DNA of 64,000 bases from Nitrospirota bacterium (GCA_040757475.1 JBFLWW010000001.1:55769-119768), one strand, 5' to 3'. Shown: positions 12,526 to 51,855, counted from the stretch's first letter. Numbers and translations are program-made. Notes: generated by a model not told the origin, from the sequence alone.

Positions 12526-12534
12526 GATAGGAGG

Positions 12535-37492: not shown

Positions 37493-39559
37493 TTACACCA
37501 GCAAAGGAACAATCAAAAGCGCCACAATATTAACGACCTTGATCATGGGGTTCATTGCCGGTCCTGCGGTATCTTTATACGGGTCACCGACAGTGTCACC
37601 TGTAACAGCAGCCTTGTGCGCATCAGACTTCTTTCCACCATACATGCCTTCCTCTATAAACTTCTTTGCATTATCCCATGCACCGCCTCCGCTCGTCATC
37701 GCGATTGCTAAGAAGAGGCCTGTAAGAATGACCCCGATCAGCATAGCTCCAAGGGCCTCTTTCCCAAGGATGAAACCCACAAGAACCGGCGAAGCTACTG
37801 GAAGTAGAGACGGGATAATCATCTCTTTAATGGCACCTTTTGTAACAATGTCAACACACTGTCCATATTGTGGTTTGGCTTTGCCTTCCATAATGCCTGC
37901 TATTTCACGGAACTGGCGTCTTACCTCTTCTACAACACCTCCGGCTGCCTTACCCACTGCTAACATAAGCCTTGAACCATAATAGAATGGTAGCAAAGCA
38001 CCTATAAACAACCCAGATAGAACAAGCGGGTTTGCAAGCTTAAAGTGAAGCTCAATGCCATGTGCCAGAAATTCACGTGAGTACTCAGCAAATAGAACCA
38101 ATGCACAGAGCCCTGCTGAAGTAATTGCATATCCCTTTGTTACTGCCTTTGTTGTATTTCCGACTGCATCAAGCGGATCAAGAACAGTCCCACGGACCTT
38201 CTCATCCATCTGTGACATCTCGGCAATACCAGCAGCATTGTCTGTAACCGGTCCATAGGAGTCAATAGCGACCACGATACCTGTCATAGAGAGCATAGCA
38301 GCAGCAGCAAGACCTATAGCATAGAGACCAATATCTTCTTTACCTGCGAATCCACCACCTAAGGCATAGGATGCAAGGATGGCACCCACGACAACGAGGG
38401 CAGGTGGCATAGTTGACCTCATGCTGACTGATAAGCCAGCAATAATATTAGTGGCAGGACCTGTTGTGCTCGCCTTCGCAATCAGCTTTACAGGGCCAAA
38501 GCCCTTGGAAGTAAAGAACTCGGTGATCGCCATCATAAGCCCTGTAGCCAATAGGCCAACACCGGCTGTTAAAAGCACTGTCCATGGCGTGAATGCCAAG
38601 GCCTCTTTTGAGTCTGGTAAAAATTTTCCGATAAACCAGATCGAGACAAAATAGAATGCTATTGCAGCTAATATACCTGCGGCGGCTAACCCTTTGTAGA
38701 GTGCACCCATGATATACTGCTTTGCACCCAACCTTACGAAGAATGTCCCAACGATAGAGGCTATAATAGAGATCCCACCTAAAAGCAACGGGAAGAATGC
38801 CCAGGTGCTCTCTGCACCAAAGACAGTCTTACCAAGTAGCATTGCAGCCACTATTGTTACTATATAGGTCTCATAGAGGTCTGCAGCCATACCAGCACAA
38901 TCTCCTACATTGTCTCCAACCTGGTCAGCGATAACTGCAGGGTTTCTCGGGTCATCCTCGGGTATGCCTGCCTCAACCTTACCCACGAGGTCAGCACCAA
39001 CATCAGCAGCCTTTGTATAGATACCACCTGCAATACGGGCAAAGACACTCATGAGTGAGCAACCAAATCCAAGACCGACAAGGGCATAAAATGCCTTTTC
39101 TGGCACAATAGCCTTGGCTATAGAATAGTAAACTGCAATGCTCAGAAGAGCCAAACCCACTACCAGGAGACCTGCTACAGAACCACCCCGGAAGGCCAAT
39201 CTAAGGGCGTTTCTTAAACTGGTATAGGCAGCCTGTGAAGTCCTCAGGTTTCCCCTAACAGTAATCATCATTCCGACATAGCCTGCTGTTGCAGAGCCAG
39301 TAGCCCCGAGCAAGAACCCAAAGGCTGCAATCCAGTGCAGAAAGATCCCTATCAGCACAAATATGAAAATCCCGACCAATGCAACTGTCCTGTACTCACG
39401 GCTGAGAAAGGCCTGGGCACCTTCGCGTATAGCAGCAGCAATCTCCTGCATCCGAGCAGTTCCTTTCTCCTGCTTAACCACCCAAGCCGCAGTCAGTATC
39501 CCGTAAAGGACACCTGCAGCTCCACAAATAGCAGCAAATATAATGATACCTTGTTCCAT
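37493..39559 (-). CDS. hppA: membrane-bound ion-translocating pyrophosphatase, K+-independent (H+-PPase) signature
   Basis: 688 aa and about 16 TM helices. Motifs GDNVGDCAG and [24 protein letters not shown] carries the Lys/Thr pair diagnostic of K+-independent enzymes. Confidence 0.95.
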
Positions 39560-39577
39560 TCTTCACCTCCATTTTTT

Positions 39578-39649
39578 AGTTATGAGTGATGAGTTACGAG
39601 TGAGAAGTTAAAAACTATGGACCTTTAAACTTCTCGTTTAACTCGTTAC
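39578..39649. repeat. two-arm heptamer element (TTATGAG TGATGAG TTACGAG TGAGAAG TTAAAA / TTTAAACTTCTCGTTTAACTCGTTAC)
   Basis: Read directly in the qmoC-hppA spacer. Confidence 0.8.
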
Positions 39650-39700
39650 CGCCTTCTTTTGCTACCTGTTACTAAATCTTCCACCTCCCCTCATTTTTTA

Positions 39701-40888
39701 TCATCCCCTTTCAACCTCCCTCTCTGCATGCTTTGCAAAAACCATTGCTACAGCTCTATAAATCATATGTGCCATCTTTGAAAACGGGGCATATGCAAAC
39801 AGGAAAAAAACGAACACCAGGTGAACAAAGTAAACAGGATAAGCCAGTATAGCAATATCTGCAAGTCTTGTTAACTCTGTAAGTATCCCTGTAACTGCGA
39901 TAACAAAGACAACAGTTATGAAGATCCAGTCAAAATAACTCCCACGACCTGCTTTTTCCTTATTATTCACTCTATCTTTAATGACCAGATAGCCACCAAT
40001 TAAAAGTGCTATAGCACCTGCATTTCCAAGCCATTTAACCGGATCAGTCAATGGATATGGTGATTCGCCGAAATGGAAGATCGATGTTGCCTTAATACCA
40101 AAAAATTCATAACCATATAGGTAAACAACTGCCCATAGGGCAGTGATTGCAAGGGCTATGAATCCATAAAACACAAGCATATGAGAAATATACCTGGCTT
40201 TGGTGACATCACATTTCTGAAATCTCTTATGTGTTAATATTTCAGCTATCGTTGCAGTAATAGTTGGTATAAGTGATCCCTTCAACAGCATCTTCTGTCG
40301 AGCCTCCCCAGCACCAGCTACCATATCTTTCCAGTATCTGAAAATTCCTGCAACGAGTACTAACGCAGCAAATGCAGATATACCGCCATAAATAATCTCA
40401 AGGTATATAGCTGGTATAAATTTTGCGTAAGAGATACCGCCATCCTCTCCCCTTGGTATGGCAGAAAGGCTGAGGTGACCAAGCGATGAAAGGAGTAGAA
40501 GAAGGACCACGACAGGAACAGCAAACAGAAGGACAAGATAAGAAGGGCTACCAACTGCCTTTCCAAGAAATTGTGGTATAGAATAATGCTGTATTGACAG
40601 CTTTCTTACCGCATTAAGCACTTCACCTGGTTTCGCACCCCTCGGACAATACACTGTGCAATCACTACACTGATGGCATAGCCATATATCAGGATTGCTG
40701 AACAGCTTGTCCTTCAAACCCCATTGTGCATGTATCATCTCTTTTCTCGGAAATGGCTTATTGTCAGGTGTTACATTACAGACCACCGAACATGTGGCAC
40801 ACTGGAAGCATTTTTTTAACGACTCGCCCCCTGACTTTATAACATCCCTTACAAAACCTAAATCAGGACTTATAACCTCCTCTGCCAT
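39701..40888 (-). CDS. qmoC: quinone-interacting membrane-bound oxidoreductase subunit C (HdrC-like FeS domain + HdrE/NarI-like membrane cytochrome b domain)
   Basis: The N-terminus has CFQCATCSVVC and CHQCSDCTVYCP, followed by about 6 TM helices. It sits directly after qmoAB. Confidence 0.85.
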   Translation of the reverse strand: MAEEVISPDLGFVRDVIKSGGESLKKCFQCATCSVVCNVTPDNKPFPRKEMIHAQWGLKDKLFSNPDIWLCHQCSDCTVYCPRGAKPGEVLNAVRKLSIQHYSIPQFLGKAVGSPSYLVLLFAVPVVVLLLLLSSLGHLSLSAIPRGEDGGISYAKFIPAIYLEIIYGGISAFAALVLVAGIFRYWKDMVAGAGEARQKMLLKGSLIPTITATIAEILTHKRFQKCDVTKARYISHMLVFYGFIALAITALWAVVYLYGYEFFGIKATSIFHFGESPYPLTDPVKWLGNAGAIALLIGGYLVIKDRVNNKEKAGRGSYFDWIFITVVFVIAVTGILTELTRLADIAILAYPVYFVHLVFVFFLFAYAPFSKMAHMIYRAVAMVFAKHAEREVERG

Positions 40889-40904
40889 TATTTACCTCCA
40901 TAAT

Positions 40905-40966
40905 ATTGAGTCAATGAGTCAAGTTATTGGGTCAATGAATTTGGTTAAGTTACTTATTCACTTATT
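40905..40966. repeat. single-arm ~8-nt periodic array in the qmoB-qmoC spacer
   Basis: ATTGAGTCA ATGAGTCA AGTTATTGG GTCAATGA ATTTGGTT AAGTTACT TATTCACT. Confidence 0.65.
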
Positions 40967-40975
40967 TTCTTAACC

Positions 40976-43177
40976 CTATCCCTTATACGGATTAGGGCCG
41001 AATTCCTCCAATTTTTTCATGAAGTTATTTAATATATCTGGTATTTTGTAATACTCAGAGATAGATATCTGTTCCATCTGAACCCTTCCGGACTCAAGCC
41101 TTAATCTGTCCAGTGTTTCTGCAACCTTTGACAATCTTATCTTAGCCAGGTGGCTTCCTGTGGCCATATGACACTGATAATCCTCACCGTATTGACATCC
41201 CAGAATAAGTATCCCATCAACTCCTTTTGAGAGTGCATCTGCTATCCATACAAGGTTCATTGAGCCCGCGCATCTTAAGGGGATTACCCTTACAAAGGAA
41301 TTATATTGTAGGCGATTTATTCCTGCCATGTCCAGTGCTGGATATGCATCATTTTCGCAGGCAAAAACAATAGCCCTCGGCTTCTCATCCTCTTCAGGAG
41401 GAACCTCTATGTTCTTGACCATTGTTCCTATCATGTCAACAGAGTAATTCTTAAAGCTGATAATCCTTTCAGGACATGCACCAAGACAGATTGCGCATCT
41501 TCTGCAGCGAGTCGGATTATAAAGAGGATTGGCCTTTTCATCTTCATTGATAGCTCCGAAGGGACACTCTTCTGTACATCTCTTACACTGGGTACATTTT
41601 TGCATAAAGAAATCTGCATAGGATATATCTCCAGCCCTTGGATGTACTGCCTCACCCCTACCTGTCATTTCAATACACTGGATTGCCTTAAGGGCTGCCC
41701 CTGTGGCATCCTCTATGGTAGAAGGTATATCCATAGGTGCTCTTACAGAACCAGCAGCATAAATGCCGGTTCTCCGGGTTTCATAGGGGAAACAGATGAA
41801 GTTGGAGTCAGGATATCCATTGATTAAAACAGGCACCTCACCACCCTGCCTGTACCCAAGGTTTAAAATATCTGTTTCAATCATAACATATGGAATGAAC
41901 TCATCCCCTGGTTTTACCCCTGGTGGAAGCTCCTCTTCACCTAATGCAGTTACTGGAACTATCCCTGTTGCTAGAACAGCAAGGTCAACATTCACCTTTA
42001 TCTTTTCACCTATCAGGGTATTTTCTATATCTATATTGAGGTTCTTGTTTTCATCCTCTGTGATGCCTTTAACATCTCCTTTCGTCAAGAAAATCCCTGC
42101 ATCATTCTGGATGCCCTTGTAAAAATATTCATAATGACCGGGTGTTCTCATGTCCCTATAGAATATATATACCTTTGAATCAGGATACTGGTCCCTTATA
42201 TATTTTGCCTGTTTGAGAGACTCTATACAGCAGGTCGCTGAACAGTAAGGTAAATAATTCTCATCCCTCTGACCTGCGCACAGAACAAAGGCCACGCTTT
42301 TAACTGGTTTACTATCAGAGGGTCTTACAATCGCTCCCTTTGAGGCAAGCTCTTCCATCATGTAGTTTGTTACCACATTCGGATATTTGCCAAACCCAAG
42401 GTGCTCTATCTTTGTAGCATCATAAGGTATGGTACCAGCAGCCATAACTACTGCCCCAGCCCTAAAGCTCTCAACCTTTCCATCTTGTCTTACTACGACA
42501 TCATATACGCCAGGTCCACCTTCTATCTTCTCTATCATTGAAGAGGTATAAATCTTAACCTTTTGGTTCTGTTGAATCTCTTTAATTAAGTCTTTGATGA
42601 GTGGTTCTTCAAGGTCAGTATAGGGAGGTTCTGTAGGTGCCTGTTTATAAAGTTTTGCCATCCATCCGCCAAGAGAATCATTCTTTTCTACAAGGAAGAC
42701 ATCATATCCTGCCTTTGCTGCTTCATTAGCAGCAGTAATCCCAGCAAGACCACCTCCAACAATTAGTACATTTTTAGAGAGATTCTCTACCTTATAAGGT
42801 TCTGGTGCCTCCATCTTCTGCATCTTGAGGATACCCATCCTTACATAGTCTTCAGCCATCATCTGGGTGTCCTCGTTATTCGGTGGGTGGGTCCAGACAA
42901 CCCCTTCCCTGAGGTTAACCCTTTCCACAAGAGGAATGCCTAAATTGAAGACATCATAATTTACACGAGGCGAGCAGGCAGCAATAACAACTGCGTTAAC
43001 TCCTTCAGTAGCCATATCATTTTTAATGAAATCCATACCTTCCTTCTGACACAAGGCTGGATGGGTTTTGACAACGGGGGCCTTTGTTTTAGTTGCAACC
43101 TTTACTAAACTATCTATATTAAGGGATTTTCCTATCTCACAATCACTACAAATATAAACTCCTATTTTTTTCTCCAT
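40976..43177 (-). CDS. qmoB: quinone-interacting membrane-bound oxidoreductase subunit B (HdrA-like flavoprotein with FeS and MvhD-like C-terminus)
   Basis: FAD fold VLIVGGGLAGITAA, clusters CTQCKRCTEECP and CRRCAICLGACP, and a C-terminal Cys-rich domain. Confidence 0.88.
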   Translation of the reverse strand: MEKKIGVYICSDCEIGKSLNIDSLVKVATKTKAPVVKTHPALCQKEGMDFIKNDMATEGVNAVVIAACSPRVNYDVFNLGIPLVERVNLREGVVWTHPPNNEDTQMMAEDYVRMGILKMQKMEAPEPYKVENLSKNVLIVGGGLAGITAANEAAKAGYDVFLVEKNDSLGGWMAKLYKQAPTEPPYTDLEEPLIKDLIKEIQQNQKVKIYTSSMIEKIEGGPGVYDVVVRQDGKVESFRAGAVVMAAGTIPYDATKIEHLGFGKYPNVVTNYMMEELASKGAIVRPSDSKPVKSVAFVLCAGQRDENYLPYCSATCCIESLKQAKYIRDQYPDSKVYIFYRDMRTPGHYEYFYKGIQNDAGIFLTKGDVKGITEDENKNLNIDIENTLIGEKIKVNVDLAVLATGIVPVTALGEEELPPGVKPGDEFIPYVMIETDILNLGYRQGGEVPVLINGYPDSNFICFPYETRRTGIYAAGSVRAPMDIPSTIEDATGAALKAIQCIEMTGRGEAVHPRAGDISYADFFMQKCTQCKRCTEECPFGAINEDEKANPLYNPTRCRRCAICLGACPERIISFKNYSVDMIGTMVKNIEVPPEEDEKPRAIVFACENDAYPALDMAGINRLQYNSFVRVIPLRCAGSMNLVWIADALSKGVDGILILGCQYGEDYQCHMATGSHLAKIRLSKVAETLDRLRLESGRVQMEQISISEYYKIPDILNNFMKKLEEFGPNPYKG

Positions 43178-43180
43178 GAT

Positions 43181-44446
43181 TTACCTCCTCACCAAAGATT
43201 GAATGGCTTTTAGTGCTGCAGCTGTACCTTCGCGTGCACTGGAATAGACATCAACTGGCTTTGTAACACAGCCAACGGCATACATCCCGGCTGTACCAGT
43301 ATTTGATAGAACAAAGCCATCTGTATCATAAGATATGCTTGTGGGTATCTTCCATTCCTTTGTGACAGGGGCCATACCTGTGGCAAGAACAGCGAGTTCT
43401 ACTTTCTCCTGAATCTTCTTACCTGCCTCTACATCCTCTGCCACCACAGTAAGGTCCTTTGTGTTAGGGTCTTCCTCAATCTTTGCAACCTTACCTTTAA
43501 TAAACTTTATATTTTCATCGCTCTGGACCTCTTTATAAAACTTTTCATATCTCGTTCCAGGCGAACGAATGTCAATATAAAATATAAATATCTGTGCCTG
43601 AGGATATTGCTCCCGCACATAGGTTGCCTGTTTCATAGATGCCAGGCAACAGATATAGGAACAGTATGAGAGATGATTTTCATCCCTTGAGCCAGCACAC
43701 TGGACAAATGCTACTCTTGAAACCTCTTTACCATCAGAGGGACGAAGTATTTTCCCTTTAGTAGGACCATTAAAAGATGCCATCCTTTCCATCATCATGT
43801 TAGTAATGACATTCTGATACTTCCCGAATCCAAGATTATCAATCTTTGCGGCGTCGTATGGATTCCAACCAGTAGCCCAGACTATAGAACCTGCTTTTAA
43901 GGGGATGCTTTGGGACTTCATATTAAGGTCAATAGCGTTATATGTGCAAGCCTCTACACATTTGGCACATTTTTCTTTAGTGCAATACTTCTCATCAATC
44001 ACGTATCTCAATGGGAAGGCAAATTCATGTGGAAGATAAATAGCCTTTGTCTTATCCATACCAAAATTGAATTCATTAGGCCTTTCAACAGGGCATGCCT
44101 CAACACAGGCATTGCAGGCAGTACACTTCTCATTAACATAGCTGGGATTAAGCTTTACTGTTACATCAAAGTCTCCCTCTGAACCAGAGATTTTTTCCAC
44201 TTCTGCTAGGGTGTAAAATTTGACCCTCGGGTTGTTTTTGATTCTCCTGAAATTTATCTCCAGACCGCAGTTTGGTGGACATAACTTTGGGAAATATTTA
44301 TTAAGCTGGGCCACACGACCACCGAGGTATGAATTCTTCTCAATAAGAGTAACCTCATACCCAACCTCGGCTGTTTCTACAGCGGTGGTTATCCCACTTA
44401 TTCCTCCACCTACAACCAATACATTTTTCGATTTCTCTACTGCCAT
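43181..44446 (-). CDS. qmoA: quinone-interacting membrane-bound oxidoreductase subunit A (HdrA-like flavoprotein)
   Basis: Motifs VLVVGGGISGITTA, CTACNACVEACP and CAKCVEAC. Only 3 nt separate it from qmoB. Confidence 0.88.
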   Translation of the reverse strand: MAVEKSKNVLVVGGGISGITTAVETAEVGYEVTLIEKNSYLGGRVAQLNKYFPKLCPPNCGLEINFRRIKNNPRVKFYTLAEVEKISGSEGDFDVTVKLNPSYVNEKCTACNACVEACPVERPNEFNFGMDKTKAIYLPHEFAFPLRYVIDEKYCTKEKCAKCVEACTYNAIDLNMKSQSIPLKAGSIVWATGWNPYDAAKIDNLGFGKYQNVITNMMMERMASFNGPTKGKILRPSDGKEVSRVAFVQCAGSRDENHLSYCSYICCLASMKQATYVREQYPQAQIFIFYIDIRSPGTRYEKFYKEVQSDENIKFIKGKVAKIEEDPNTKDLTVVAEDVEAGKKIQEKVELAVLATGMAPVTKEWKIPTSISYDTDGFVLSNTGTAGMYAVGCVTKPVDVYSSAREGTAAALKAIQSLVRR

Positions 44447-44531
44447 ACTATCCCTCCATAAATGTTTATATAGTTAAAGAATATATGAGAAATTTTGAGC
44501 ATTATTAAGGCGTCTGTTTTAAAGTGCTATT

Positions 44532-44561
44532 AGTTAACACAAAACAGTGTATATTTGTCAA
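44532..44561 (-). promoter_or_regulatory. candidate promoter for qmoABC
   Basis: The minus strand reads TTGACA-18 nt-TTAACT about 85 nt upstream of the qmoA ATG. The -10 is weak. Confidence 0.3.
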
Positions 44562-44616
44562 CCCCAAAATTTAAGTAACCTATTAGCTTTAATATTAACA
44601 TTAATAATATTTATAT

Positions 44617-45153
44617 TTAATCACATTCCGATTTAATTGCGTCAAATGCCAGAAAGATTCTCTTTTCCTTCTCAATCCTTCCTTCTGGTAGCTTTTTAAA
44701 TTCAATTTTCTTAAGGGTTTCTAATGCCTTGGGCTTTTGGGGTATTGCCTCTAAACCTGAGCTGATTACCTCACCAGAGATGGTATTCATAACTTCTGCA
44801 TCCTCTCCATTGGTTATAACAGCAAATGGTATTTGATAAATATCAAGAATCCTTGCACAAGCCAGAACCTCCCTTTCCCTCATGACCAATGAACTACGGG
44901 CACAGCTTATAAGCATGAATCTCTTTCCTTCAACACTTACAATAAGGTCAACCTTTGATCTATTTATTTCATTGTCCACAGCAATCTCGAATTTCGTATC
45001 AACCTCAATATCCTCTTTTGAATAACCTTTCTCTTCAACGAGAAAATGTTCTATTTTCTGCCTGATTCTTTCATCATCTGTATCAATGAATGCTTGCCCC
45101 GTTATAAAATCAGTGAGTGTATCCTCTCCCTTAATTTTACACTTCTCTACCAT
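44617..45153 (-). CDS. HsdR_N-like (type I restriction enzyme R-protein N-terminal domain fold) stand-alone protein
   Basis: 178 aa with pattern ..IRQKIEHFLVEEKGYSKEDIEV......V.......VDLIVSVEGKRFMLISCA.....MREREVLACARIL..IYQIPFAVITNG.. I recalled this family from memory and did not search for it. Confidence 0.5.
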   Translation of the reverse strand: MVEKCKIKGEDTLTDFITGQAFIDTDDERIRQKIEHFLVEEKGYSKEDIEVDTKFEIAVDNEINRSKVDLIVSVEGKRFMLISCARSSLVMREREVLACARILDIYQIPFAVITNGEDAEVMNTISGEVISSGLEAIPQKPKALETLKKIEFKKLPEGRIEKEKRIFLAFDAIKSECD

Positions 45154-45164
45154 CTAATACCCCT

Positions 45165-45947
45165 TTATGCGGGTTCTGGCCTTATTTTTAACTTCAATGT
45201 TTCCTCAAGCATCAGGATATATTTTAGATATTTAAAGCCAAACTTCATAAGTGCAGTCTCATCACCCTTTATCTCCTCAACATCTTCCTTATTGATATCA
45301 ATAACATCAAGGAACCTGCTCTCAAATATATATTTTCTAAATCTGTCTAAATCATAACTTGCCATGTAAATCAGGGGCTGTTTCTTCGGGTCAAGTTTGG
45401 GTTGCCCTATAGCATCCCTCCTCAACTGAATCTCCTTCCACTCCTTGTTCATCTCATCATAAATGTCAACTCCCTGGTCAATCCTCCATGTCTCAATAGT
45501 CCACTCTTTGTCTCCCTGATAGCCAAGGCAATTCGGTTCCCTGATAAAAAAGTAGAATTCCTCATTTACTGGCCCTTTCTCTGAGCCCTTTATCATGAGA
45601 CCTTGACCGACCGGATAATATCGGCAGTTAACAGGCCGGTCTTCATAAATACTACAGCCCTCAGGTGTTACAAAGGGACATCTCCCTTCAGCCTCATCCA
45701 TCATCTTGAGCACTGCATAAGGATGTGAGGACTTTTCATCAATATGAATAGAGGTGTATTTCTTAAGGAACTCTCCTGAAGAGATTCCCAACCTCTTTTT
45801 CATCCTTAAGATGTCATAAGGGGTAAGGAGTATGTCTGTAAGTCTACAGCATTTATTGAAACAACTGATACCTTTATGACACCTGAACTTGAATTTTGAA
45901 TTCAATGTGCGCTCAATTGGTTCTACAAACCTCATATTTTGTAACAT
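45165..45947 (-). CDS. YkgJ/UPF0153-family cysteine-cluster (CxxCxxCC-type) protein, paralog 1
   Basis: FKFRCHKGISCFNKCC..LTPYDILRM...CPFVTPEGCSIYEDRPVNCRYYP, plus a C-terminal extension of about 130 aa. Confidence 0.7.
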   Translation of the reverse strand: MLQNMRFVEPIERTLNSKFKFRCHKGISCFNKCCRLTDILLTPYDILRMKKRLGISSGEFLKKYTSIHIDEKSSHPYAVLKMMDEAEGRCPFVTPEGCSIYEDRPVNCRYYPVGQGLMIKGSEKGPVNEEFYFFIREPNCLGYQGDKEWTIETWRIDQGVDIYDEMNKEWKEIQLRRDAIGQPKLDPKKQPLIYMASYDLDRFRKYIFESRFLDVIDINKEDVEEIKGDETALMKFGFKYLKYILMLEETLKLKIRPEPA

Positions 45948-45950
45948 GGT

Positions 45951-46724
45951 TTAATCCTTCTTTCTTGAGTGTAAGAGCTTATCCATCTCCTTGTCTTTAA
46001 GTCTCATTGTATCTTCCGAGAAGAGATTGAATCTTATCCATCTATAACCAAAACTTAAGAGTTCTTCTTCATCTTCTTTTATCTTTTCGATAACCTCTTT
46101 CTTCACATCATATATACCAAAAAACCTTGTTTCGAAAAGAAATCTCCTGAACTCATTCAGGTCATAACAAGCCGTATGAAGCATCTTCGTTCTTCCTGAA
46201 TCCAGCTTATTCCCCTTCTGAAAATAATCATGGTGGGTAATCTCTTTATAAGATTCGTTCATTTTATCATAGATATCAATCCCTTGATTCTTCTTCCACT
46301 CCTGTATTGTCCATTGTTTCTCCTCTTTTAATCCAAGGCATGAGGGCTTTTCCTCTATCCAAAACTCTTCTTCTTTAGAGGAAACCGGGAATATGGGATA
46401 CATTCTGCAAGACCATGGCCTATCCTGGTAAATACTGCACCCATCAGGGGTAACGAAGGGACAGCTTTTTATTTCATCCTCCAACATCTTGAGTACCACC
46501 AGTGGTAATCCCTCCTCGCCCGAGAGTGCAATGGTATATCTCTTTAGGAATTCTCCGGAAGATATCCAGAGTGACTTTCTCATTCTCAGGACATCATAAG
46601 GTGTGAGAAAGATATTTACATCACAGCAGCAGGTGTTAAAACAGGAAAGACCTTTGTGACATGAGAATCTGAATTTGTCATTTAGAGAAAGCCTTCGTTG
46701 TTTTTCGGTATATTCTTCATTCAT
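45951..46724 (-). CDS. YkgJ/UPF0153-family cysteine-cluster (CxxCxxCC-type) protein, paralog 2
   Basis: FRFSCHKGLSCFNTCC..LTPYDVLRM...CPFVTPDGCSIYQDRPWSCRMYP. It is collinear with paralog 1 over its whole length. Confidence 0.7.
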   Translation of the reverse strand: MNEEYTEKQRRLSLNDKFRFSCHKGLSCFNTCCCDVNIFLTPYDVLRMRKSLWISSGEFLKRYTIALSGEEGLPLVVLKMLEDEIKSCPFVTPDGCSIYQDRPWSCRMYPIFPVSSKEEEFWIEEKPSCLGLKEEKQWTIQEWKKNQGIDIYDKMNESYKEITHHDYFQKGNKLDSGRTKMLHTACYDLNEFRRFLFETRFFGIYDVKKEVIEKIKEDEEELLSFGYRWIRFNLFSEDTMRLKDKEMDKLLHSRKKD

Positions 46725-46743
46725 AAACTATTCTCTAAAATTT

Positions 46744-46768
46744 TGGGGGCGACCTGAAAGGTCGCCCC
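46744..46768 (-). terminator. GC-rich hairpin (attenuator/processing candidate) between aprA and the downstream genes
   Basis: GGGGGCGACC-TGAAA-GGTCGCCCCC, a perfect 10-bp stem. On the minus strand it is followed by AAAATTTT, which is a poor T-tract. Confidence 0.45.
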
Positions 46769-46799
46769 CACATAGATACCTCTCAAGATACTGGCTCAA

Positions 46800-48725
46800 C
46801 TAAATGATAGGGATCATTGGCCTTGTTAATACCGTCCATTCCTTCTTATCCACATCATACTTCACATTTATAAAGTGCCTCTGACCCTCATCCAGTTTCA
46901 GGTAATCGTGCTTAAAGTAATATCCAGGCCATCTTGACTCCTTCCTCGCCAGCCTTGTCCTTGCACATGCCTCGGCAACCCAGTATCTGTGTATCGCCTC
47001 CCATGCCCTCATCAGCTCATGATTGTTCTTCTCAACATTAGTAGCAATCTTCTCTATATCCTCTCCGCAGAACCCTAACTTCCAGATGCCGGTCTCGAGC
47101 ATCTTGTCAGATGTCCCATACAATGTCTCCCATCCACCACAATATTCTCCCATTATCTTCTGTAGCCTGAATAGGAAATTGTGCGGGGAGATATAGTTAG
47201 GATTCACATCCGGGCTTGTTGTATATCCCTTCTTCTCCTCATAGAGGGCAACGGGTCTAAATACTATTTCCTTGAGTTTACTTATTGTGGCATCAGATAC
47301 TGTTGGCTTATAGTCCTTCTGGTCATTGGCGAACCTGACCACTGCCTTTGCTGCAATCCTTCCCTGTACATGTGAGCCGCTTGAGAACTTATGGGCACAT
47401 GCCCCTACACCACAACCTGCTGTGAATAGACCCATGACAGTGGTCATGCAGTTATACTGGGCAGGGAATGCATCCGCATATTCTTTTGGCATAAGGTCTT
47501 CAGCACCACAGGTCCAACAACCACAAGAGCAGGCATGTGAACCTATGAAGACAGAATCTGACAACTGAAGCTCCATAGGTTTTTCCATTGGGTCAATATT
47601 ATGGGCAGCCCAGTTTGTGGCACCTGCGATTGTCATGTCGAGGAAGTCCTCCCAGGCCTCGCTCTCATATTCTTTTATCTTCTTCTTCAGCTCCTTTGGA
47701 TCTGTTATCTCCTTCTGAAACCTTTCTACCACCCTCTCTGTGTGCATGAGGAATGGTGTTTTGCCTTCCTGTGCGCAGAGTATCATCTCATAGTTTCTAA
47801 TAGGAGTCGGACAGGGCTTCGCATGTGCATATGGTGCCCACTTGTCTGTCTGGGATGGATATCCACCAACGTAATCCCCGTCATAAGCATTTTTTGCAGG
47901 TGTCTTAAAGAGAAGGAAGAATGTTCCAACAGGACCGTAGGAATCTTTGAACCTCGGAGGGACGAAGGTACTGTCCATCTGTGTCAACTCACCACCTGCT
48001 AGAAGAGTAAGGGCATAAGTCGAACCTCCTAACCATGGTGGCATCCATGACCTTCCAAAGCCTTCAGCCTGAGACCTTGGCCTGAATACATGGACTGCAC
48101 CACCCATTATAGAAAGGACTACCTTTGCCTTAAAGACATAGAATTTGTCTTCCCTGACGCTAAAACCTACTGCACCGCATACCCTGTTAGGCTCTTTCTC
48201 ATCCTTCAAAAGGTGCGTGATATAGACCCTCTCGATTAACTGGCCCTTATCTCCAAGGGTACCTATAGCGTTCTTTGCTGCCTCTGCCACGATAATCTTG
48301 TAGCTCTCGCCTGATATCATCACCTGCCATTCACCTGATTTTCTCAGATTTCCTGCCTCATCCGTCCATATAGGAAGTCCCCATTTCTGAAAGAGTCTGA
48401 CGGTTCCATCCACATGTCTTGCAATATCATAGACGAGGTCCTGCCTTGCAAGGCCACACTGGTCATTCGTCACATATTCAACAAACCTTTCCGGCATGCG
48501 GGGATTCTCGGTCACCTTTCCATCCATTCCCATATATGTATTAATAGCAGAAAGTCCCATCGCAACAGGGCCACTTCTGTCAACAGCAGCCTTATCCACC
48601 CATGTTACTTTTAAACCCAGTGGCTTTGCCCAGTATGCAGCCTCTACTGCAGCACCACAGCCTGCCATTCCTCCACCGAGTATCAATATATCAGTATCAA
48701 TAACCTCTGTTGTAAATTCTTTCAT
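46800..48725 (-). CDS. aprA: adenylylsulfate (APS) reductase, alpha subunit
   Basis: 641 aa with the FAD fold DILILGGGMAGCGAA. Its length and sequence are characteristic of AprA, and it pairs with aprB. Confidence 0.95.
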   Translation of the reverse strand: MKEFTTEVIDTDILILGGGMAGCGAAVEAAYWAKPLGLKVTWVDKAAVDRSGPVAMGLSAINTYMGMDGKVTENPRMPERFVEYVTNDQCGLARQDLVYDIARHVDGTVRLFQKWGLPIWTDEAGNLRKSGEWQVMISGESYKIIVAEAAKNAIGTLGDKGQLIERVYITHLLKDEKEPNRVCGAVGFSVREDKFYVFKAKVVLSIMGGAVHVFRPRSQAEGFGRSWMPPWLGGSTYALTLLAGGELTQMDSTFVPPRFKDSYGPVGTFFLLFKTPAKNAYDGDYVGGYPSQTDKWAPYAHAKPCPTPIRNYEMILCAQEGKTPFLMHTERVVERFQKEITDPKELKKKIKEYESEAWEDFLDMTIAGATNWAAHNIDPMEKPMELQLSDSVFIGSHACSCGCWTCGAEDLMPKEYADAFPAQYNCMTTVMGLFTAGCGVGACAHKFSSGSHVQGRIAAKAVVRFANDQKDYKPTVSDATISKLKEIVFRPVALYEEKKGYTTSPDVNPNYISPHNFLFRLQKIMGEYCGGWETLYGTSDKMLETGIWKLGFCGEDIEKIATNVEKNNHELMRAWEAIHRYWVAEACARTRLARKESRWPGYYFKHDYLKLDEGQRHFINVKYDVDKKEWTVLTRPMIPII

Positions 48726-48737
48726 TTTCTCACCTCC

Positions 48738-49184
48738 TTATTTTTTCTTTGTCGGGAGTTCCTTCACTCCCATTATATCAGGCTCCCCAAGGAGCAACTG
48801 AGTGGTTAAATCCGCTGCCTTTGCTTCGGGATATCCCTCGAGCGCCTTTATAGAGCCTTCTGCAGTAGTCCTCGTTGCATACTTAAATCTCTTGATCCTT
48901 CCATCCCTGAATGTGATAGTCCACATGATATCCTCTGTTCCTCTCAAAGGAGTTGATGCAGCACCGAGGGGCATAAAGTCTTGATAACCCCTGACATCCA
49001 TAGCCTGCTGTGGACATATCTTTACACAACAGTAGCACTCCCAGCAATAACTAGGCTCCTGATTGTATGCCTTCATCCTCTCCTTATCCAGAAACATCAG
49101 GTCGTTAGGGCATATGTACATACAGGCAGTTTTATCCTGCCCCTTACAGCCGTCGCACTTTTCTGTCATTACAAAACTTGGCAT
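48738..49184 (-). CDS. aprB: adenylylsulfate reductase, beta subunit (2x[4Fe-4S])
   Basis: MPSFV..EKCDGCKG......CMYICPNDLM and CWECYCCVKICP, with the typical C-terminal tail. Confidence 0.93.
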   Translation of the reverse strand: MPSFVMTEKCDGCKGQDKTACMYICPNDLMFLDKERMKAYNQEPSYCWECYCCVKICPQQAMDVRGYQDFMPLGAASTPLRGTEDIMWTITFRDGRIKRFKYATRTTAEGSIKALEGYPEAKAADLTTQLLLGEPDIMGVKELPTKKK

Positions 49185-49203
49185 CTTAACACCTCCTTTT
49201 TAC

Positions 49204-49240
49204 AAAATTTTAAATTTTAAATTTTAAATTTTAAATTTTT
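49204..49240. repeat. (TAAATTT)x5 perfect-to-near-perfect tandem heptamer upstream of aprB
   Basis: AAAATTT TAAATTT TAAATTT TAAATTT TAAATTT, read directly. Confidence 0.9.
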
Positions 49241-49287
49241 AAGACCCCCACCTCCTTTCTTCTCAGGATTTCGCTTCTTTTTAGTCC

Positions 49288-49674
49288 TTATGCAGCCTTT
49301 TTTTGTAATCCAAGTGCTTCACTAATATCAATGTCAGGTACCGGTAATGCCTCTGACTCCTTTGCAGCGAGTTCCTTTATCTTAGGAAGATCTGCAAGGA
49401 CTGCATCAATTACCTCTTTACCGATAGACTTCATAGTCTTTATCTTTTCAAAGAGGGCCCTCTTGAAGGCAATAGGTGCTTCCTCTATGAAGAATCGGGC
49501 ATCTAACCTCGCACCCGGAAGCCCCTCAATTATCTTATTGGTCTGTTCGTCTGGCACCTCCATAATCAATGCCTTTATCGCTCCTCCGAACATATCCGTT
49601 ACCTTACCCTCAAGGGGCGAACCTTTGATATCAGAAAGCCTCTTTGCATCTAATAGCACAGCCAGGTAATTCAT
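49288..49674 (-). CDS. hypothetical acidic protein (128 aa, Cys-free) between sat and aprB
   Basis: The ATG lies 14 nt after the sat stop and follows AAGGGGGTGGAGA. The gene is co-oriented and I recognise no motif. A 112-aa antisense ORF also exists. Confidence 0.5.
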   Translation of the reverse strand: MNYLAVLLDAKRLSDIKGSPLEGKVTDMFGGAIKALIMEVPDEQTNKIIEGLPGARLDARFFIEEAPIAFKRALFEKIKTMKSIGKEVIDAVLADLPKIKELAAKESEALPVPDIDISEALGLQKKAA

Positions 49675-49688
49675 TCTCCACCCCCTTT

Positions 49689-51065
49689 TTATTTAAATTT
49701 AGGAATATCCATTGGAGCCAGATCTATCTCAAGCTCCTTTTCTCTCTCTGTCAGGTACCTCTTGTTATTGAATGGGTAGCCGAATTCCTTCCACCATTTG
49801 ACCACAACCTGATATACCTCTCGCCTCATGATAACCGGTGGTGGGAAAACACCCTCTGCGAGCAAGCTCCTGATAAAGCTACCACTATACCTCTGTAATT
49901 CGTCCTTATGGGTACAGTTTTCGCTGTATGTAACCTCTCCGCAGTGTGGACAGTACCAGAACTCAGCCATGTTCTGTGGCCTCATATACAGTCCCTGAGG
50001 CACAGCATAAGGAGGTGCATCCAGACCAAAGCTTGGAATTCCCTTCTCCCAGAGGATCTGTGCTGCATACATATCATAATATGGTCCCAATGCTGCATGG
50101 TCTCTTCCAAACATGTGATATGAGATACCCATATTCTGCCGGATGATTCCATGTAAGAGTGACTCAATTGGGTTTCCATATCTCATATCCCATAGAGTAA
50201 GGGTTACCAGGTGTCTATTTGGACTGACATAACCTGCAAGGTTTACCATCTCATGAGCTTCAACTATTGCTTCATCCGGATAATCCCCTATCCTCTTAGC
50301 CCCGACTATGCAATTGACAACTATACCATCACATGGTTTTACGTCTCCGATAAAAGCAGCATTTCTCAGTAGGGCCTCATGCCCGGTATGGGGGACGTTT
50401 CTCGTCTGGTGGGCTATTACTGTTGTCCAGCCTCTCTTTTTGAATTCCTCCCTTGACTTGGCAGGTGGATACCAGAACCTATCAAAAGGTTTCCTTAGCT
50501 TGGGCTCATTGATTATCCTGTACTTTCCAGCTAAGATTATTGGGTTGAACGCACTGTATATGGTAAAACCTGGATGCTTAAAATCAAAGGGGACTTTTAC
50601 AACCTCTGGATTATGCTCAGGAGTTCCAAAGGTTCTGGTAGCTACCTCTCCTGGGCTAATCTCATAGACTTCCTCAATATCAAGAATTGCAAAAGGCTGT
50701 CCTTTAAGCCTCAAAAGGAGCGTGTCTCCTGAAGTTACACCAAGCTTTTTGTGATCCTCCTCGCTGATATCAAAAAGCATCGGGTAAGGGAAGACCCACC
50801 CGCTCAGCAGTCTTCTCTTCTCCAATAAACTCTCAAGTTCTGCTGAGGTCATCGAGCCTTCTACAGGGCTGAAGAAGCCGTAACATATAGACATGATCTC
50901 CCTGTAAACATTTCTTACAGGCATGTCCTTGTATAGGGTTGGTTTGATATCATAAACAGCGTCAGCCTTAGCAGCTATCTTTTTCCCGACCTCTGGGTCT
51001 GTGACAATCCTGTTAACCAGAGCTCCACCATGGGGCGGTGGAAGTGTTGTCATTTTTAGCTCCAT
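49689..51065 (-). CDS. sat: sulfate adenylyltransferase (ATP sulfurylase), dissimilatory type
   Basis: Motifs HQTRNVPHTGHEAL and C-terminal zinc-ribbon-like CPHCGEVTYSENCTH. Confidence 0.93.
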   Translation of the reverse strand: MELKMTTLPPPHGGALVNRIVTDPEVGKKIAAKADAVYDIKPTLYKDMPVRNVYREIMSICYGFFSPVEGSMTSAELESLLEKRRLLSGWVFPYPMLFDISEEDHKKLGVTSGDTLLLRLKGQPFAILDIEEVYEISPGEVATRTFGTPEHNPEVVKVPFDFKHPGFTIYSAFNPIILAGKYRIINEPKLRKPFDRFWYPPAKSREEFKKRGWTTVIAHQTRNVPHTGHEALLRNAAFIGDVKPCDGIVVNCIVGAKRIGDYPDEAIVEAHEMVNLAGYVSPNRHLVTLTLWDMRYGNPIESLLHGIIRQNMGISYHMFGRDHAALGPYYDMYAAQILWEKGIPSFGLDAPPYAVPQGLYMRPQNMAEFWYCPHCGEVTYSENCTHKDELQRYSGSFIRSLLAEGVFPPPVIMRREVYQVVVKWWKEFGYPFNNKRYLTEREKELEIDLAPMDIPKFK

Positions 51066-51093
51066 TATAACCTCCTTTCTTTAACTTTTATGA

Positions 51094-51738
51094 CTAACTT
51101 TCAAGAACTGCACAAACATTTTTGAATATTTCATCAATACTGCCTACACCCTCTACTGATTTCAATATCCTCCTTTCCTTGTAGTAATTTATAAGTGGTG
51201 CTGTCTGGGCATCGTAGACATCAAGCCTCCTTTTTATCGTCTCTTCTTTATCGTCATCCCTTTGAAATAGCTCACCACCACATTTATCGCATGTCCCTTC
51301 TTTCTTTGGCGGCGAAAAATATACGTTATACATCTGCTGGCAGTTCCTGCATGTCCTCCTTCCTGTTAGTCTCTTCATGAGGACATCTTTATCCACATCA
51401 ATGAGTAGGGCGGTATCAAGGGGAGCTCCCATTTCAGAGAGCACCCTGTCCAATGCTTCTGACTGAGCTGTATTCCTCGGAAAGCCATCAAGTATATAGC
51501 CCTTCTTACAGTCATCCTGAGCAATCCTTTCCTTAACAAGCCCGATTACAACGCTATCAGGCACAAGCTCACCTTTATCCATATAGGACTTTGCCTCTTT
51601 CCCGAGTGGCGTTCCCGCTGCGACTGCTGCTCTTAAAATATCCCCTGTAGAAATCTGTGGAATCCCGTATCTTTCGATCAGTTTTTTCGCCTGAGTTCCT
51701 TTACCCCCTCCTGGTGCTCCGAGAAGAACAAGTCTCAT
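51094..51738 (-). CDS. adk: adenylate kinase (zinc-lid type)
   Basis: MRLVLLGAPGGGKGTQ directly follows GGGGGAGGA-ATG at 51738. The lid is CRNC...CDKCGG. The track start 51795 lies in a 5'-UTR hairpin. Confidence 0.93.
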   Translation of the reverse strand: MRLVLLGAPGGGKGTQAKKLIERYGIPQISTGDILRAAVAAGTPLGKEAKSYMDKGELVPDSVVIGLVKERIAQDDCKKGYILDGFPRNTAQSEALDRVLSEMGAPLDTALLIDVDKDVLMKRLTGRRTCRNCQQMYNVYFSPPKKEGTCDKCGGELFQRDDDKEETIKRRLDVYDAQTAPLINYYKERRILKSVEGVGSIDEIFKNVCAVLES

Positions 51739-51855
51739 ATCCTCCCCCTCTAAAAGACATTCTCGTTTTAAAAATTTAAGATATATAGAAAGCACCTAAG
51801 GTAAAGATTAGGTGCTAAATGGCTAATGAGAATAACCTTGCGTAAAAAACAAAAC

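Follow-up and report, generated by a model that had tools for sequence, protein, structure and literature searches.

In the Nitrospirota bacterium GCA_040757475.1, the genes for APS reductase (aprBA) are separated from qmoABC by three genes, two of which encode paralogous cysteine-cluster proteins, here called Cx1 and Cx2, and the third an HsdR_N-like protein. APS reductase and Qmo account for the first reductive step of dissimilatory sulfate reduction, and both the electron route to AprBA and the existence of further partners are still debated. The window, that is, the whole stretch of DNA analysed, comprises 64,000 nt (JBFLWW010000001.1:55769-119768), and coordinates count from its first letter. 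The features of the locus lie on the minus strand in the order aprB-aprA, hairpin, Cx1, Cx2, HsdR_N-like gene, a 170-nt gap, and qmoABC:

48738..49184, minus strand: aprB, APS reductase beta subunit (PF12139 APS-reductase_C, E = 1.7e-29, plus Fer4 domains)
46800..48725, minus strand: aprA, APS reductase alpha subunit (FAD_binding_2 and Succ_DH_flav_C matches)
46744..46770, minus strand: hairpin with a 12-bp GC-rich stem, between aprA and Cx1
45951..46724, minus strand: Cx1, 257 aa (PF03692, 39.8 bits), the core apr-linked member
45165..45947, minus strand: Cx2, 260 aa (PF03692, 41.6 bits), paralogue of Cx1
44617..45153, minus strand: HsdR_N-like gene, 178 aa (PF13588, 69.6 bits)
44530..44561, minus strand: putative promoter-like element in the 170-nt gap ahead of qmoA, recognised by cross-locus conservation
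39701..44446, minus strand: qmoABC (qmoA 44446-43181, qmoB 43177-40976, qmoC 40888-39701), with the Pfam architectures of these subunits, including FlpD in QmoB

The aprB, aprA, and qmoABC genes were identified from their ORFs and Pfam architectures, which bear out the flanking genes named in a preliminary description of this DNA; the assignments of sat, adk, and hppA rest on their translations and on conserved homologues in related loci, which match the ATP-sulfurylase, ADK, and H_PPase families of Pfam. The genes sat, aprB, aprA, qmoA, qmoB, and qmoC are co-oriented in a single cluster. The three ORFs reported earlier between aprA and qmoA were all recovered on the minus strand, at 257, 260, and 178 aa, and they are tightly spaced, with 75 nt between aprA and Cx1, 3 nt between Cx1 and Cx2, 11 nt between Cx2 and the HsdR_N-like gene, and 170 nt ahead of qmoA. 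The window aprA is 73-90% identical to the aprA of related loci, in which the qmoABC gene order is also kept.

Transcription signals around the intervening genes

A strong hairpin had been noticed upstream of the three genes, and folding confirms it. Its 12-bp, GC-rich stem, UGGGGGCGACCU-UUC-AGGUCGCCCCCA followed by AAAAUUUU, begins 29 nt past the aprA stop and has a centroid energy of -25.5 kcal/mol; the 81-nt stretch that contains it gave z = -3.45, and 0/200 shuffles folded as well. The GGGGCGACC...GGTCGCCCC stem recurs behind aprA in nearly all loci whose AprA is at least 73% identical, those of Syntrophobacteraceae included, and other lineages carry different strong hairpins at the same place. 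A search of Rfam returned no match for it, and its identity with a known RNA family was rejected. The hairpin is probably a leaky terminator or a stabiliser of the mRNA 3' end between aprA and Cx1. Because only 19 nt lie between the hairpin and the Cx1 start, Cx1 has no room for a promoter of its own.

The gap ahead of qmoA had been described as a promoter-like stretch of 170 nt. Its length stands, and cross-locus conservation points to a candidate element (TTGACA, 18 nt, TTAACTAAT) that precedes the qmoA start by about 85 nt, but a generic sigma-70 scan, which yielded fewer sites than shuffled sequence did, failed to pick up the conserved motif. Of 21 distinct related loci, at least 13 have this motif, TTGACAAATAT...TTTTGT-(T/A)TA(A/C)CTAAT, ahead of qmoA, and it recurs with or without the HsdR_N-like gene. 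The hairpin after aprA and the promoter-like motif before qmoA would therefore place the Cx genes in the apr transcription unit.

The Cx and HsdR_N-like proteins

Cx1 and Cx2 align collinearly over 254 residues with 46% identity (E = 1e-81), which upholds their proposed paralogy and collinearity and slightly raises the 40-45% identity estimated by eye. HMM search placed both above the PF03692 (CxxCxxCC) gathering cut-off of 23 bits, in agreement with the YkgJ/UPF0153 membership suggested for them. The expected cysteine signature is present, but its spacing is C-x5-C-x3-CC and not C-x4-C-x3-CC as first read: in Cx1, C22-x5-C28-x3-C32-C33 is followed by a second group consisting of C88, C96, C106, and C129. 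All eight cysteines are at least 96% conserved among 134 diverse family members, and all eight are kept in Cx2. Conservation in both paralogue groups extends to 57 positions spread along the whole 260 aa, while 22 fixed differences distinguish Cx2 from Cx1 orthologues. Cx2 forms a separate clade with 100% bootstrap support, and a tree with weak support places the single-copy apr-linked homologues with Cx1.

The AF2 model of Cx1 (pLDDT 85, pTM 0.83) had no PDB match in a Foldseek search. The C-terminal half, about 130 aa long and helical, is shared by both paralogues, as had been observed before, and matches no Pfam family at E ≤ 10 except for a chance-level HMW1C_N match. Neither protein matched a Fer4 family at E ≤ 0.1, whereas AprB, QmoA, QmoB, and QmoC each match several, and neither matched radical SAM PF04055. 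One distant Cx relative, P0458, is fused to a radical-SAM domain. Because 57 positions are conserved over the full length, Fer4 matches are absent, and one relative is a radical-SAM fusion, the sequences of Cx1 and Cx2 look more like those of an enzyme or adaptor than of a ferredoxin. At E ≤ 1e-10 the family comprises 1321 representatives of 50%-identity clusters and is thus wider than apr alone; the full-length subfamily, with 266 representatives at E ≤ 1e-30, is tied to aprA.

Public annotations of Cx orthologues read 'YkgJ family cysteine cluster protein' (YkgJ/UPF0153/COG0727), but the Pfam domain covers about 85-110 residues, to which Cx adds the conserved helical domain. To our knowledge, FliB is the only characterised member of the PF03692 family. 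In this Salmonella flagellin lysine-N-methylase, which has a protein substrate, a CX4CX3CC motif binds an oxygen-sensitive [4Fe-4S] cluster (PMC8598068). The Cx proteins resemble FliB in having an N-terminal cysteine motif of the same type and eight conserved cysteines. They differ from it in length (about 260 aa against a 373-position model), in their unrelated C-terminal domains, and in their neighbours, which are aprBA and qmoABC instead of flagellar genes. Orthology with FliB was rejected, as the match to NF038110 is partial and below cut-off (16 bits against 85 for Cx2, over residues 20-102 only; none for Cx1). We infer Fe-S binding by Cx from a relative that is distant, since just 2 of 105 family members reach the FliB model at E ≤ 0.01.

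The resemblance of the third protein to HsdR_N was borne out by HMM search, PF13588 (HSDR_N_2) matching residues 27-138 over profile positions 2-110 of 110, well above the cut-off of 25 bits. Its AF2 model (pLDDT 74) has a restriction-endonuclease-like alpha/beta fold, and Foldseek matched it to BsaXI (E = 3.8e-4), the HsdR fragment 3h1t, and several restriction-endonuclease-like proteins. At five residues, D69, C84, R86, C99, and C177, at least 118 of the 121 homologues agree; D69, at the PD position, is kept in 119 of these and C84 and R86 in 120 each. The E-x-K triad that could not be placed in the preliminary description is indeed missing, the (D/E)-x-K position reading S/K-C84-A-R86 in a register taken from predicted strands, not from structural superposition. 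The protein is predicted to be a catalytically dead PD-(D/E)xK domain. Further differences from HsdR are its three invariant cysteines, its fixed place in a respiratory operon, and the lack of a helicase or methylase partner domain or neighbour. It is a stand-alone protein between Cx2 and qmoA and not a type I HsdR, and its only PADLOC matches were to Type II methyltransferase models (MTase_II; residues 10-79 and 23-131). All named homologues are from Nitrospirota (Thermodesulfovibrionales and Dissulfurispiraceae included), every located one sits in the Cx2-to-qmoA slot, and about half of the sister lineages lack the gene. The domain, with its invariant Cys/Asp/Arg set, may have been recruited in Nitrospirota as an optional third component of the operon.

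Linkage of the Cx family to aprA

The preliminary description had reasoned that homologues without any association with apr/qmo in other genomes would indicate a neutral insertion; a survey of gene neighbourhoods gave the opposite result. In 73 of 79 informative loci, a Cx homologue follows aprA on the same strand at a distance of no more than 700 nt; because the loci were collected by similarity to Cx, this figure gauges how often Cx stands beside apr and not how often apr loci contain Cx. In two further informative loci, aprA is adjacent to Cx but divergent. The loci belong to Nitrospirota, Syntrophobacteraceae, Syntrophales, Desulfobacterales, Ca. Desulfofervidus, Chloroflexota, and Zixibacteria, so that Cx follows aprA in at least four phyla (Nitrospirota, several lineages of Thermodesulfobacteriota, Chloroflexota, and Zixibacteria). 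Most lineages have one Cx gene, and uncultured lineages often have a lone copy between aprA and qmoA; the pair occurs in the Nitrospirota/Syntrophobacteraceae-type apr module. Cx2 is present in 33/35 aprA-to-qmoA intervals of the group with AprA at 70% identity or more. Among relatives at 45% identity or more, almost every Cx gene is linked to aprA, and this linkage persists through transfer between phyla; relatives at about 38-44% identity sit in non-apr contexts (L020, L021, L095). Our literature search found no paper linking the YkgJ/PF03692 cysteine-cluster family to apr.

Because Cx follows aprA in so many of these loci and in several phyla, its proposed functional tie to the Apr/Qmo system is well supported by genome comparison; the placement of that tie at the Apr/Qmo junction does not hold, as the tie is to apr itself. 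Linkage is stronger to aprA than to qmoA: only 38 of 67 loci have qmoA within 1 kb downstream, and Cx remains with aprA where qmo is not adjacent (L022-24, L061, L062, L087, L092, L102). The three genes are also not equivalent, Cx1 being the core, Cx2 an added paralogue, and the HsdR_N-like gene an optional, Nitrospirota-specific addition. That qmoABC should directly follow aprBA holds for model organisms, but an interrupting gene is not peculiar to this genome. A Cx gene is absent from the apr clusters of model sulfate reducers that include T. yellowstonii, two further Nitrospirae bins, and S. fumaroxidans, in which qmoA comes straight after aprA, and its function is therefore dispensable in these organisms or supplied from elsewhere in their genomes. 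(Sfum_1049/1050 of S. fumaroxidans, considered as a Cx pair, proved wrong, as Sfum_1049-1051 are qmoABC.)

Sequence divergence points in the same direction as gene order. Between Nitrospirota and Thermodesulfobacteriota loci, AprB, AprA, Cx1, and Cx2 are 68-90% identical, whereas QmoA is only 58-62% and Sat 27-29% identical. In L052, L054, and L059, an aprBA-Cx1-Cx2 unit stands upstream of a second, divergent aprBA-qmoABC, and the post-aprA hairpin sequence moves along with the aprBA-Cx module. These comparisons indicate that the Cx family moves with aprBA in lateral transfer. Cx divergence tracks that of AprB and AprA better than that of QmoA (distance correlations r = 0.89, 0.84, and 0.70, respectively); the partial correlation is 0.75 for Cx and AprA given QmoA and 0.51, likewise significant, for Cx and QmoA given AprA. 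Collectively, gene order and sequence comparison show Cx1 and Cx2 to be part of the APS reductase gene module, belonging neither to qmo nor to a mobile insertion.

Candidate roles of Cx1 and Cx2

Since their relatives hold the position after aprA in so many lineages, Cx1 and Cx2 look like an unstudied accessory of APS reductase; an assembly, redox-relay, or regulatory role, as the preliminary description proposed, is a candidate. The best overall explanation, offered tentatively and with rather less than even confidence, is that they are Apr-dedicated Fe-S accessory proteins. Each would bind at least one [4Fe-4S] cluster through its N-terminal C-x5-C-x3-CC motif, by analogy with FliB, and the two would form a heteromer here and a homomer where a single copy is present. 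Both would be made below the level of AprBA, through read-through of the post-aprA hairpin, an expectation that derives from the hairpin itself. We infer a mechanism in which Cx acts on AprBA itself as a dedicated redox accessory, the candidate actions being maturation, reductive activation, repair, or covalent modification; the chemistry would fall to the N-terminal Fe-S module and target recognition to the C-terminal domain.

Alternatively, Cx1 and Cx2 could be electron-relay subunits with one or two Fe-S clusters apiece, connecting AprB to QmoAB or to other donors, ETF-type proteins for example, as an extra subunit of an Apr-Qmo supercomplex. Eight conserved cysteines could hold two clusters, Cx usually lies between aprA and qmoA, and its partial correlation with QmoA persists; moreover, three loci in which qmo is not adjacent (L022-24) have etfBA and an ETF-QO-like gene nearby, and in L025 an ETF-QO-like gene lies between Cx2 and qmoA. 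Ramos et al. (2012) allowed for a further Qmo partner and found no partner genes co-localised with the cluster (PMC3333476). Nevertheless, the proteins lack a ferredoxin-type motif, their large conserved non-cysteine surface and helical domain would be unusual for a simple carrier, they are linked to aprA more than to qmoA, and their place after a strong hairpin argues against stoichiometric output with AprBA. In Desulfovibrio, in addition, Qmo and Apr interact directly (PMC3333476), with an apr-qmo operon that has no Cx gene. A relay role thus appears rather unlikely, and we consider it unlikely that Cx is specifically the unrecognised Fe-S subunit, a co-localised "missing partner" coupling AprBA to a Qmo/ETF-type electron supply. 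If that were true, however, the textbook two-component Apr/Qmo scheme would be incomplete for a large share of environmental sulfate reducers.

The breadth of the family, and the presence of distant members beside other redox enzymes, such as ETF/ETF-QO (the third copy in L022) or a NuoF-like and formate-dehydrogenase-like pair (L095), would suit a general Fe-S/thiol-chemistry protein that is co-transcribed solely for co-regulation with sulfate respiration and handles, for example, sulfite or sulfur, or repairs clusters in several flavo-Fe-S enzymes. The near-universal linkage to aprA at 45% identity or more, which withstands inter-phylum transfer, and the mirroring of AprB/AprA divergence make such an unrelated job quite unlikely. 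Redox-sensing regulation, in which Cx Fe-S proteins would respond to redox or sulfite status by adjusting the expression or activity of qmo or apr, with the nuclease-dead HsdR_N-like domain as the nucleic-acid-binding part in Nitrospirota, draws on the position of the genes directly upstream of the conserved qmoA promoter-like motif, on a likely low expression, and on the PD-(D/E)xK fold, which often serves in nucleic-acid binding and in this protein retains D69 and R86 but not the catalytic residues. It is nonetheless improbable: domain-profile searches found no recognisable DNA-binding domain in Cx, most lineages have Cx without the HsdR_N-like protein, and Cx also occurs where no qmo promoter follows. 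That the three genes landed in a permissive site and do nothing for sulfate respiration is scarcely credible. The aprA-to-qmoA interval does accept unrelated genes, such as those for VWA-domain and BNR-repeat proteins in L004 and L006, and the HsdR_N-like gene is often missing, but more than 100 loci in several phyla carry intact Cx ORFs with near-invariant cysteines and many other conserved positions, and the HsdR_N-like family keeps its five near-invariant residues and fixed position. PADLOC found no defence-system or mobile-element signature for Cx, and GC and GC3 are ordinary, giving no sign of recent foreign origin; a defence-island or mobile-element origin was rejected on these grounds. 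For Cx1 and Cx2, neutral insertion is very unlikely, having been largely refuted by the synteny survey.

Placed directly after aprA in many uncultured lineages, the Cx family provides a concrete candidate for an Apr accessory factor, a functional lead for one subfamily of the poorly understood YkgJ/PF03692 family, and a possible genomic marker for a particular type of apr module. Should Cx prove a dispensable helper, 'apr-associated cysteine-cluster protein' would still be a useful annotation.

Other accessory genes of apr and qmo offer partial parallels. Deletion of DVU0851 (QmoD) was reportedly found by Zane et al. in 2010 only to delay growth on sulfate. DVU0851 ends the D. vulgaris qmo operon and has no homologues reported outside Desulfovibrio (PMC3125180). 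It parallels Cx as a lineage-restricted hypothetical protein that shares the apr-qmo transcript and is believed to serve in energy metabolism; by description it is set apart by its place after qmoC, not aprA, and by the spread of Cx over several phyla, and the identity of Cx with QmoD was rejected. AprM, a membrane anchor co-encoded with aprBA in lineage-I sulfur oxidisers, was proposed as an Apr partner by synteny (PMC2211403). It too is lineage-specific, co-transcribed with aprBA, and taken as a dedicated Apr partner, but, compared by description, it is a membrane protein encoded upstream of aprBA that replaces Qmo, whereas Cx usually coexists with Qmo. In Ca. Thermonerobacter thiotrophicus, two conserved hypothetical genes lie between aprA and qmoC (PMC6338057). 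The paper assigns them neither family nor function, and our search found no other published note of conserved unknown genes straight after aprA. L105 and L098 share this layout, with the order aprBA-Cx-qmoC.

Organization of the sulfate-reduction cluster

On the minus strand of the window, the genes are, in order, adk, sat, a DUF6955 gene, aprB, aprA, Cx1, Cx2, the gene for an HsdR_N-like protein (178 aa), qmoA, qmoB, qmoC and hppA. The three genes of the aprA–qmoA interval, the paralogous cysteine-cluster genes Cx1 (257 aa) and Cx2 (260 aa) and the HsdR_N-like gene, lie exactly where the preliminary description had placed them. With adk, for AMP recycling, at one end and hppA, for a membrane pyrophosphatase, at the other, the genes run in one direction and make up a single block that serves to activate and reduce sulfate.

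Features of the cluster
37493-51795, minus strand: block from adk through hppA
49288-49674, minus strand: DUF6955 (PF22271) gene, 128 aa, between sat and aprB

Gaps between neighboring genes, all on the minus strand
adk to sat: 28 nt
sat to DUF6955: 14 nt
DUF6955 to aprB: 103 nt
aprB to aprA: 12 nt
aprA to Cx1: 75 nt
Cx1 to Cx2: 3 nt
Cx2 to HsdR_N-like: 11 nt
HsdR_N-like to qmoA: 170 nt
qmoA to qmoB: 3 nt
qmoB to qmoC: 87 nt
qmoC to hppA: 141 nt

A Cx1-seeded genome scan found the nearest relatives in Nitrospirota/Thermodesulfovibrionia metagenome bins. Among related loci, the DUF6955 gene occurs only alongside the sat type that is 70–97% identical to the window sat, and is missing where sat is of another type.

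The Cx family and the HsdR_N-like protein

Cx1 and Cx2, taken for paralogs of 40–45% identity by eye, are collinear and 46% identical (E = 1e-81). Both exceed the Pfam threshold for PF03692, in agreement with the YkgJ-type assignment made earlier, and the third protein likewise exceeds that for PF13588 (HSDR_N_2); the cysteine spacing first read as C-x4-C-x3-CC is in fact C-x5-C-x3-CC. Public annotation calls these products "YkgJ family cysteine cluster protein" and [quoted passage not shown] When a profile was run against 1.84 billion cluster representatives, 266 sequences related to Cx came up at E ≤ 1e-30 and 1321 at E ≤ 1e-10; almost all span 240–300 aa and match over the full length. In 134 diverse members, eight cysteines are each at least 96% conserved, as are F20, L40, P42, D44, P74, G95, Y99, R102, P103, R107, P110 and G131 (Cx1 numbering). 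A confident AlphaFold model (105-sequence alignment; pLDDT 85, pTM 0.83) places the cysteines in a mixed α/β N-terminal half, followed by an all-helical C-terminal half for which no Pfam family was found. Foldseek found no match to the model in the PDB, nor did the sequence match any PDB sequence. No characterized PF03692 protein was found besides the flagellin lysine-N-methylase FliB, which has eight conserved cysteines (PMC8598068); Cx proteins were rejected as FliB orthologs, the cysteine module alone being common to both. One relative from the representative search, P0458 (690 aa), carries a radical-SAM domain (88–238) before a full-length Cx-family region (452–684), and could be a true fusion or a gene-calling artifact.

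In a neighbor-joining tree, Cx2 forms a separate, well-supported clade, and the single-copy apr-linked proteins cluster with Cx1, with weak support (44%). The two ortholog groups have 57 conserved positions in common and 22 fixed differences, including H165/D166 versus R176/R177, a pattern that would be expected of a heteromer of specialized paralogs.

The HsdR_N-like protein is far more restricted: only 233 homologs were found, all named ones from Nitrospirota (some labeled Thermodesulfovibrionales or Dissulfurispiraceae), and every located homolog lies between Cx2 and qmoA, namely in 13 complete aprA–qmoA intervals, in loci L019 and L049, and in three look-ups down to 62% identity. Its model (pLDDT 74) has a restriction-endonuclease fold in which D69 is retained; at the (D/E)-x-K position, where no E-x-K triad could be discerned by eye, the protein indeed reads C84-A-R86. 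D69, C84, R86, C99 and C177 each occur in no fewer than 118 of the 121 homologs. We read the protein as a domain that has lost nuclease function and keeps a conserved set of Cys, Asp and Arg residues, which, speculatively, might bind a metal.

In two loci, L004 (8824–11392) and L006 (8780–11740), unrelated genes separate Cx1 from Cx2. A VWA-domain protein and a BNR-repeat protein are encoded there, together with a 172–173-aa ORF that has no Pfam match and holds the same position in both loci. The interval thus tolerates insertions, and coupling of Cx1 to Cx2 is not obligatory. Because the HsdR_N-like gene is also missing from about half of the sister loci, we regard it as a lineage-specific extra component that is optional and has been kept under constraint.

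Association of Cx with apr across related loci

Related loci came from the Cx1-seeded genome scan (21), a scan of metagenomes with a Cx1/Cx2 alignment as the seed (80) and look-ups of single homologs (7); L001–L105 were annotated by tblastn with the window's proteins, and L106–L108 by their own gene calls. Among the 79 loci with at least 700 nt before the first Cx gene, a same-strand aprA lies within 700 nt upstream in 73. Two more (Ca. Desulfofervidus type) have aprBA adjoining but divergent, one has qmoBA adjoining and divergent, and the three with neither are the remotest relatives (38–44% identity). On the downstream side, 67 loci are informative, and in no more than 38 of them is qmoA less than 1 kb away. 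As all loci were found via Cx, these counts gauge the fidelity of Cx to apr, not the share of apr clusters that carry Cx. The gene is patchily distributed, since by locus tags aprA directly adjoins qmoA in Thermodesulfovibrio yellowstonii and two other Nitrospirae bins (PMC5812927) and in Syntrophobacter fumaroxidans (PMC5947623). The three genes form a hierarchy, Cx1 > Cx2 > HsdR_N-like.

Content of the aprA–qmoA interval in loci with both ends, by AprA identity to the window
AprA ≥ 70%, Cx1 alone: 2 loci
AprA ≥ 70%, Cx1-Cx2: 18 loci
AprA ≥ 70%, Cx1-Cx2-HsdR_N-like: 13 loci
AprA ≥ 70%, Cx1-Cx2, then second aprBA: 2 loci
AprA < 70%, one Cx gene: 12 loci

The interpretation in the preliminary description is partly supported: the functional link to the Apr/Qmo system is real, but the tie is to apr and the arrangement is widespread. 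Cx is thus part of the apr module rather than of qmo. It stays with aprA at loci where qmo is not adjacent, as in Syntrophobacteraceae (aprBA-Cx1-Cx2 and, further on, sat, etfBA, an ETF-QO-like gene and a third Cx paralog) and at a Zixibacteria locus that has aprBA-Cx at its end. Between Nitrospirota and Thermodesulfobacteriota loci, identity is 84–90% for AprB, 79–84% for AprA, 68–69% for Cx1 and 69–74% for Cx2, and lower for QmoA (58–62%) and Sat (27–29%); the hairpin sequence after aprA, GGGGCGACC...GGTCGCCCC, is common to both. Three loci from bins labeled Thermodesulfobacteriota, L052 (3015–9594), L054 (3551–10213) and L059 (3557–10212), hold tandem apr modules, the first comprising aprBA (AprA 82–84% identity) with Cx1-Cx2 and the second another aprBA (AprA 48–50%), followed by qmoABC in L054 and L059, the L052 sequence stopping inside the second aprA. 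The uneven divergence, the common hairpin and the tandem modules fit a transfer of aprBA-hairpin-Cx1-Cx2 as one block. Over 30 non-redundant loci, pairwise Cx distances correlate most strongly with those of AprB (r = 0.89), then AprA (0.84) and QmoA (0.70), and the partial correlations are 0.75 for Cx–AprA given QmoA and 0.51 for Cx–QmoA given AprA (permutation, each p = 0.001); common ancestry inflates every one of these values, so that their ranking alone is informative.

Three sat types (70–97%, 37–40% and 26–31% identity to the window Sat) precede otherwise similar aprBA-Cx modules in L002–L105, which suggests that sat was replaced repeatedly and aprBA-Cx kept together. Downstream of Cx2 in Syntrophobacteraceae-type loci is a fragment resembling the AprA C terminus (38–40% identity; L022 11482–11865, residues 491–620; L061 8759–9232; L062 6204–6677), which may be the leftover of a lost second aprA. 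In L097 and L099, of Desulfobacterales/Desulfobacteraceae type, a different Cx pair lies on the opposite strand between aprBA and qmoAB, the inferred order being aprB-aprA, a SEC-C/HEAT protein, the inverted Cx pair and qmoA-qmoB; the corresponding AprA cluster has 396 members, so this type is abundant. Proteins with a SEC-C motif or of the UPF0149 type turn up repeatedly beside Cx and apr-qmo genes in different lineages (L025 17877–18644, L097 2598–3911, L095 7455–8174).

Exact-sequence look-ups, available for part of the loci, name as sources Chloroflexi bacterium RBG_13_48_17, candidate division Zixibacteria, Ca. Desulfofervidus, Syntrophales, Desulfobacterales/Desulfobacteraceae and Thermodesulfobacteriota; homology searches supplied the labels Nitrospirota and Syntrophobacteraceae. 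Four apr-Cx-qmo contigs (L005, L009, L012 and L018), with AprA 73–86% identical to Nitrospirota ones, are labeled Methanobacteriota archaeon, Nitrospinota, Ca. Aquicultor and Ca. Methanoperedens, probably through binning contamination rather than as true hosts.

Transcription signals and a proposed role of Cx

The hairpin reported ahead of the trio is a 12-bp, GC-rich structure that begins 29 nt past the aprA stop. Its end is separated from the Cx1 start by 19 nt, too short a stretch for a promoter, so that Cx transcription must pass through the hairpin or begin inside aprA. Lineages with unrelated AprA types have strong hairpins of other sequence right after aprA (−21 to −35 kcal/mol). A promoter-like motif precedes qmoA.

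44530-44561, minus strand: promoter-like motif upstream of qmoA, TTGACAAATAT...TTTTGT-(T/A)TA(A/C)CTAAT, with a perfect TTGACA

It recurs in at least 13 of 21 distinct related loci, with or without the HsdR_N-like gene (besides the window, L001, L004, L006, L007, L009, L010, L016, L019, L029, L033, L036 and L046), and the ribosome-binding context before the qmoA start, TATGGAGG, is likewise conserved. Under such an arrangement aprBA would be an abundant transcript, the Cx genes would be expressed at a lower level by read-through, and qmoABC would be driven from its own promoter.

The Cx genes have the cysteine signature and stand behind the hairpin, and neutral insertion of Cx1 and Cx2 is effectively excluded. 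We favor a dedicated accessory for AprBA over a plain electron wire: the proteins would bind [4Fe-4S], Cx1 and Cx2 would form a heteromer, and they would act on AprBA by maturation, reductive activation or repair, or covalent modification. This preference follows from conservation of the whole protein, including a C-terminal domain that looks target-specific, from the protein-modifying activity of the sole characterized relative, from the radical-SAM fusion within the family, from the position of the genes behind a probable attenuator, and from the fact that model organisms do without the function. An electron relay is nevertheless a serious rival, in favor of which stand the position between aprA and qmoA, the ETF and ETF-QO-like neighbors and the residual Cx–QmoA correlation; a regulatory or a generic Fe-S role is also conceivable. 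At L022–L024 (about 13.8–18.8 kb), etfB, etfA and an ETF-QO-like gene (Fer4_ETF_QO) adjoin the apr-Cx module, with the third Cx paralog (about 40% identity) just past them, and in L025 an ETF-QO-like gene (11050–12750) lies between Cx2 and qmoA.

The arrangement can be described as a sat-aprBA-qmoABC cluster carrying a conserved extra Fe-S-type component. A literature search returned no paper linking the Cx family with apr; some subscription journals lay outside its scope, and an earlier mention is possible. DVU0851 ("QmoD"), the hypothetical gene ending the D. vulgaris qmo operon, is a counterpart in that it, too, is specific to a lineage and belongs to the same operon; unlike Cx, it reportedly has no homologs beyond Desulfovibrio. 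In Ca. Thermonerobacter thiotrophicus, two conserved hypothetical genes lie between aprA and qmoC (PMC6338057).
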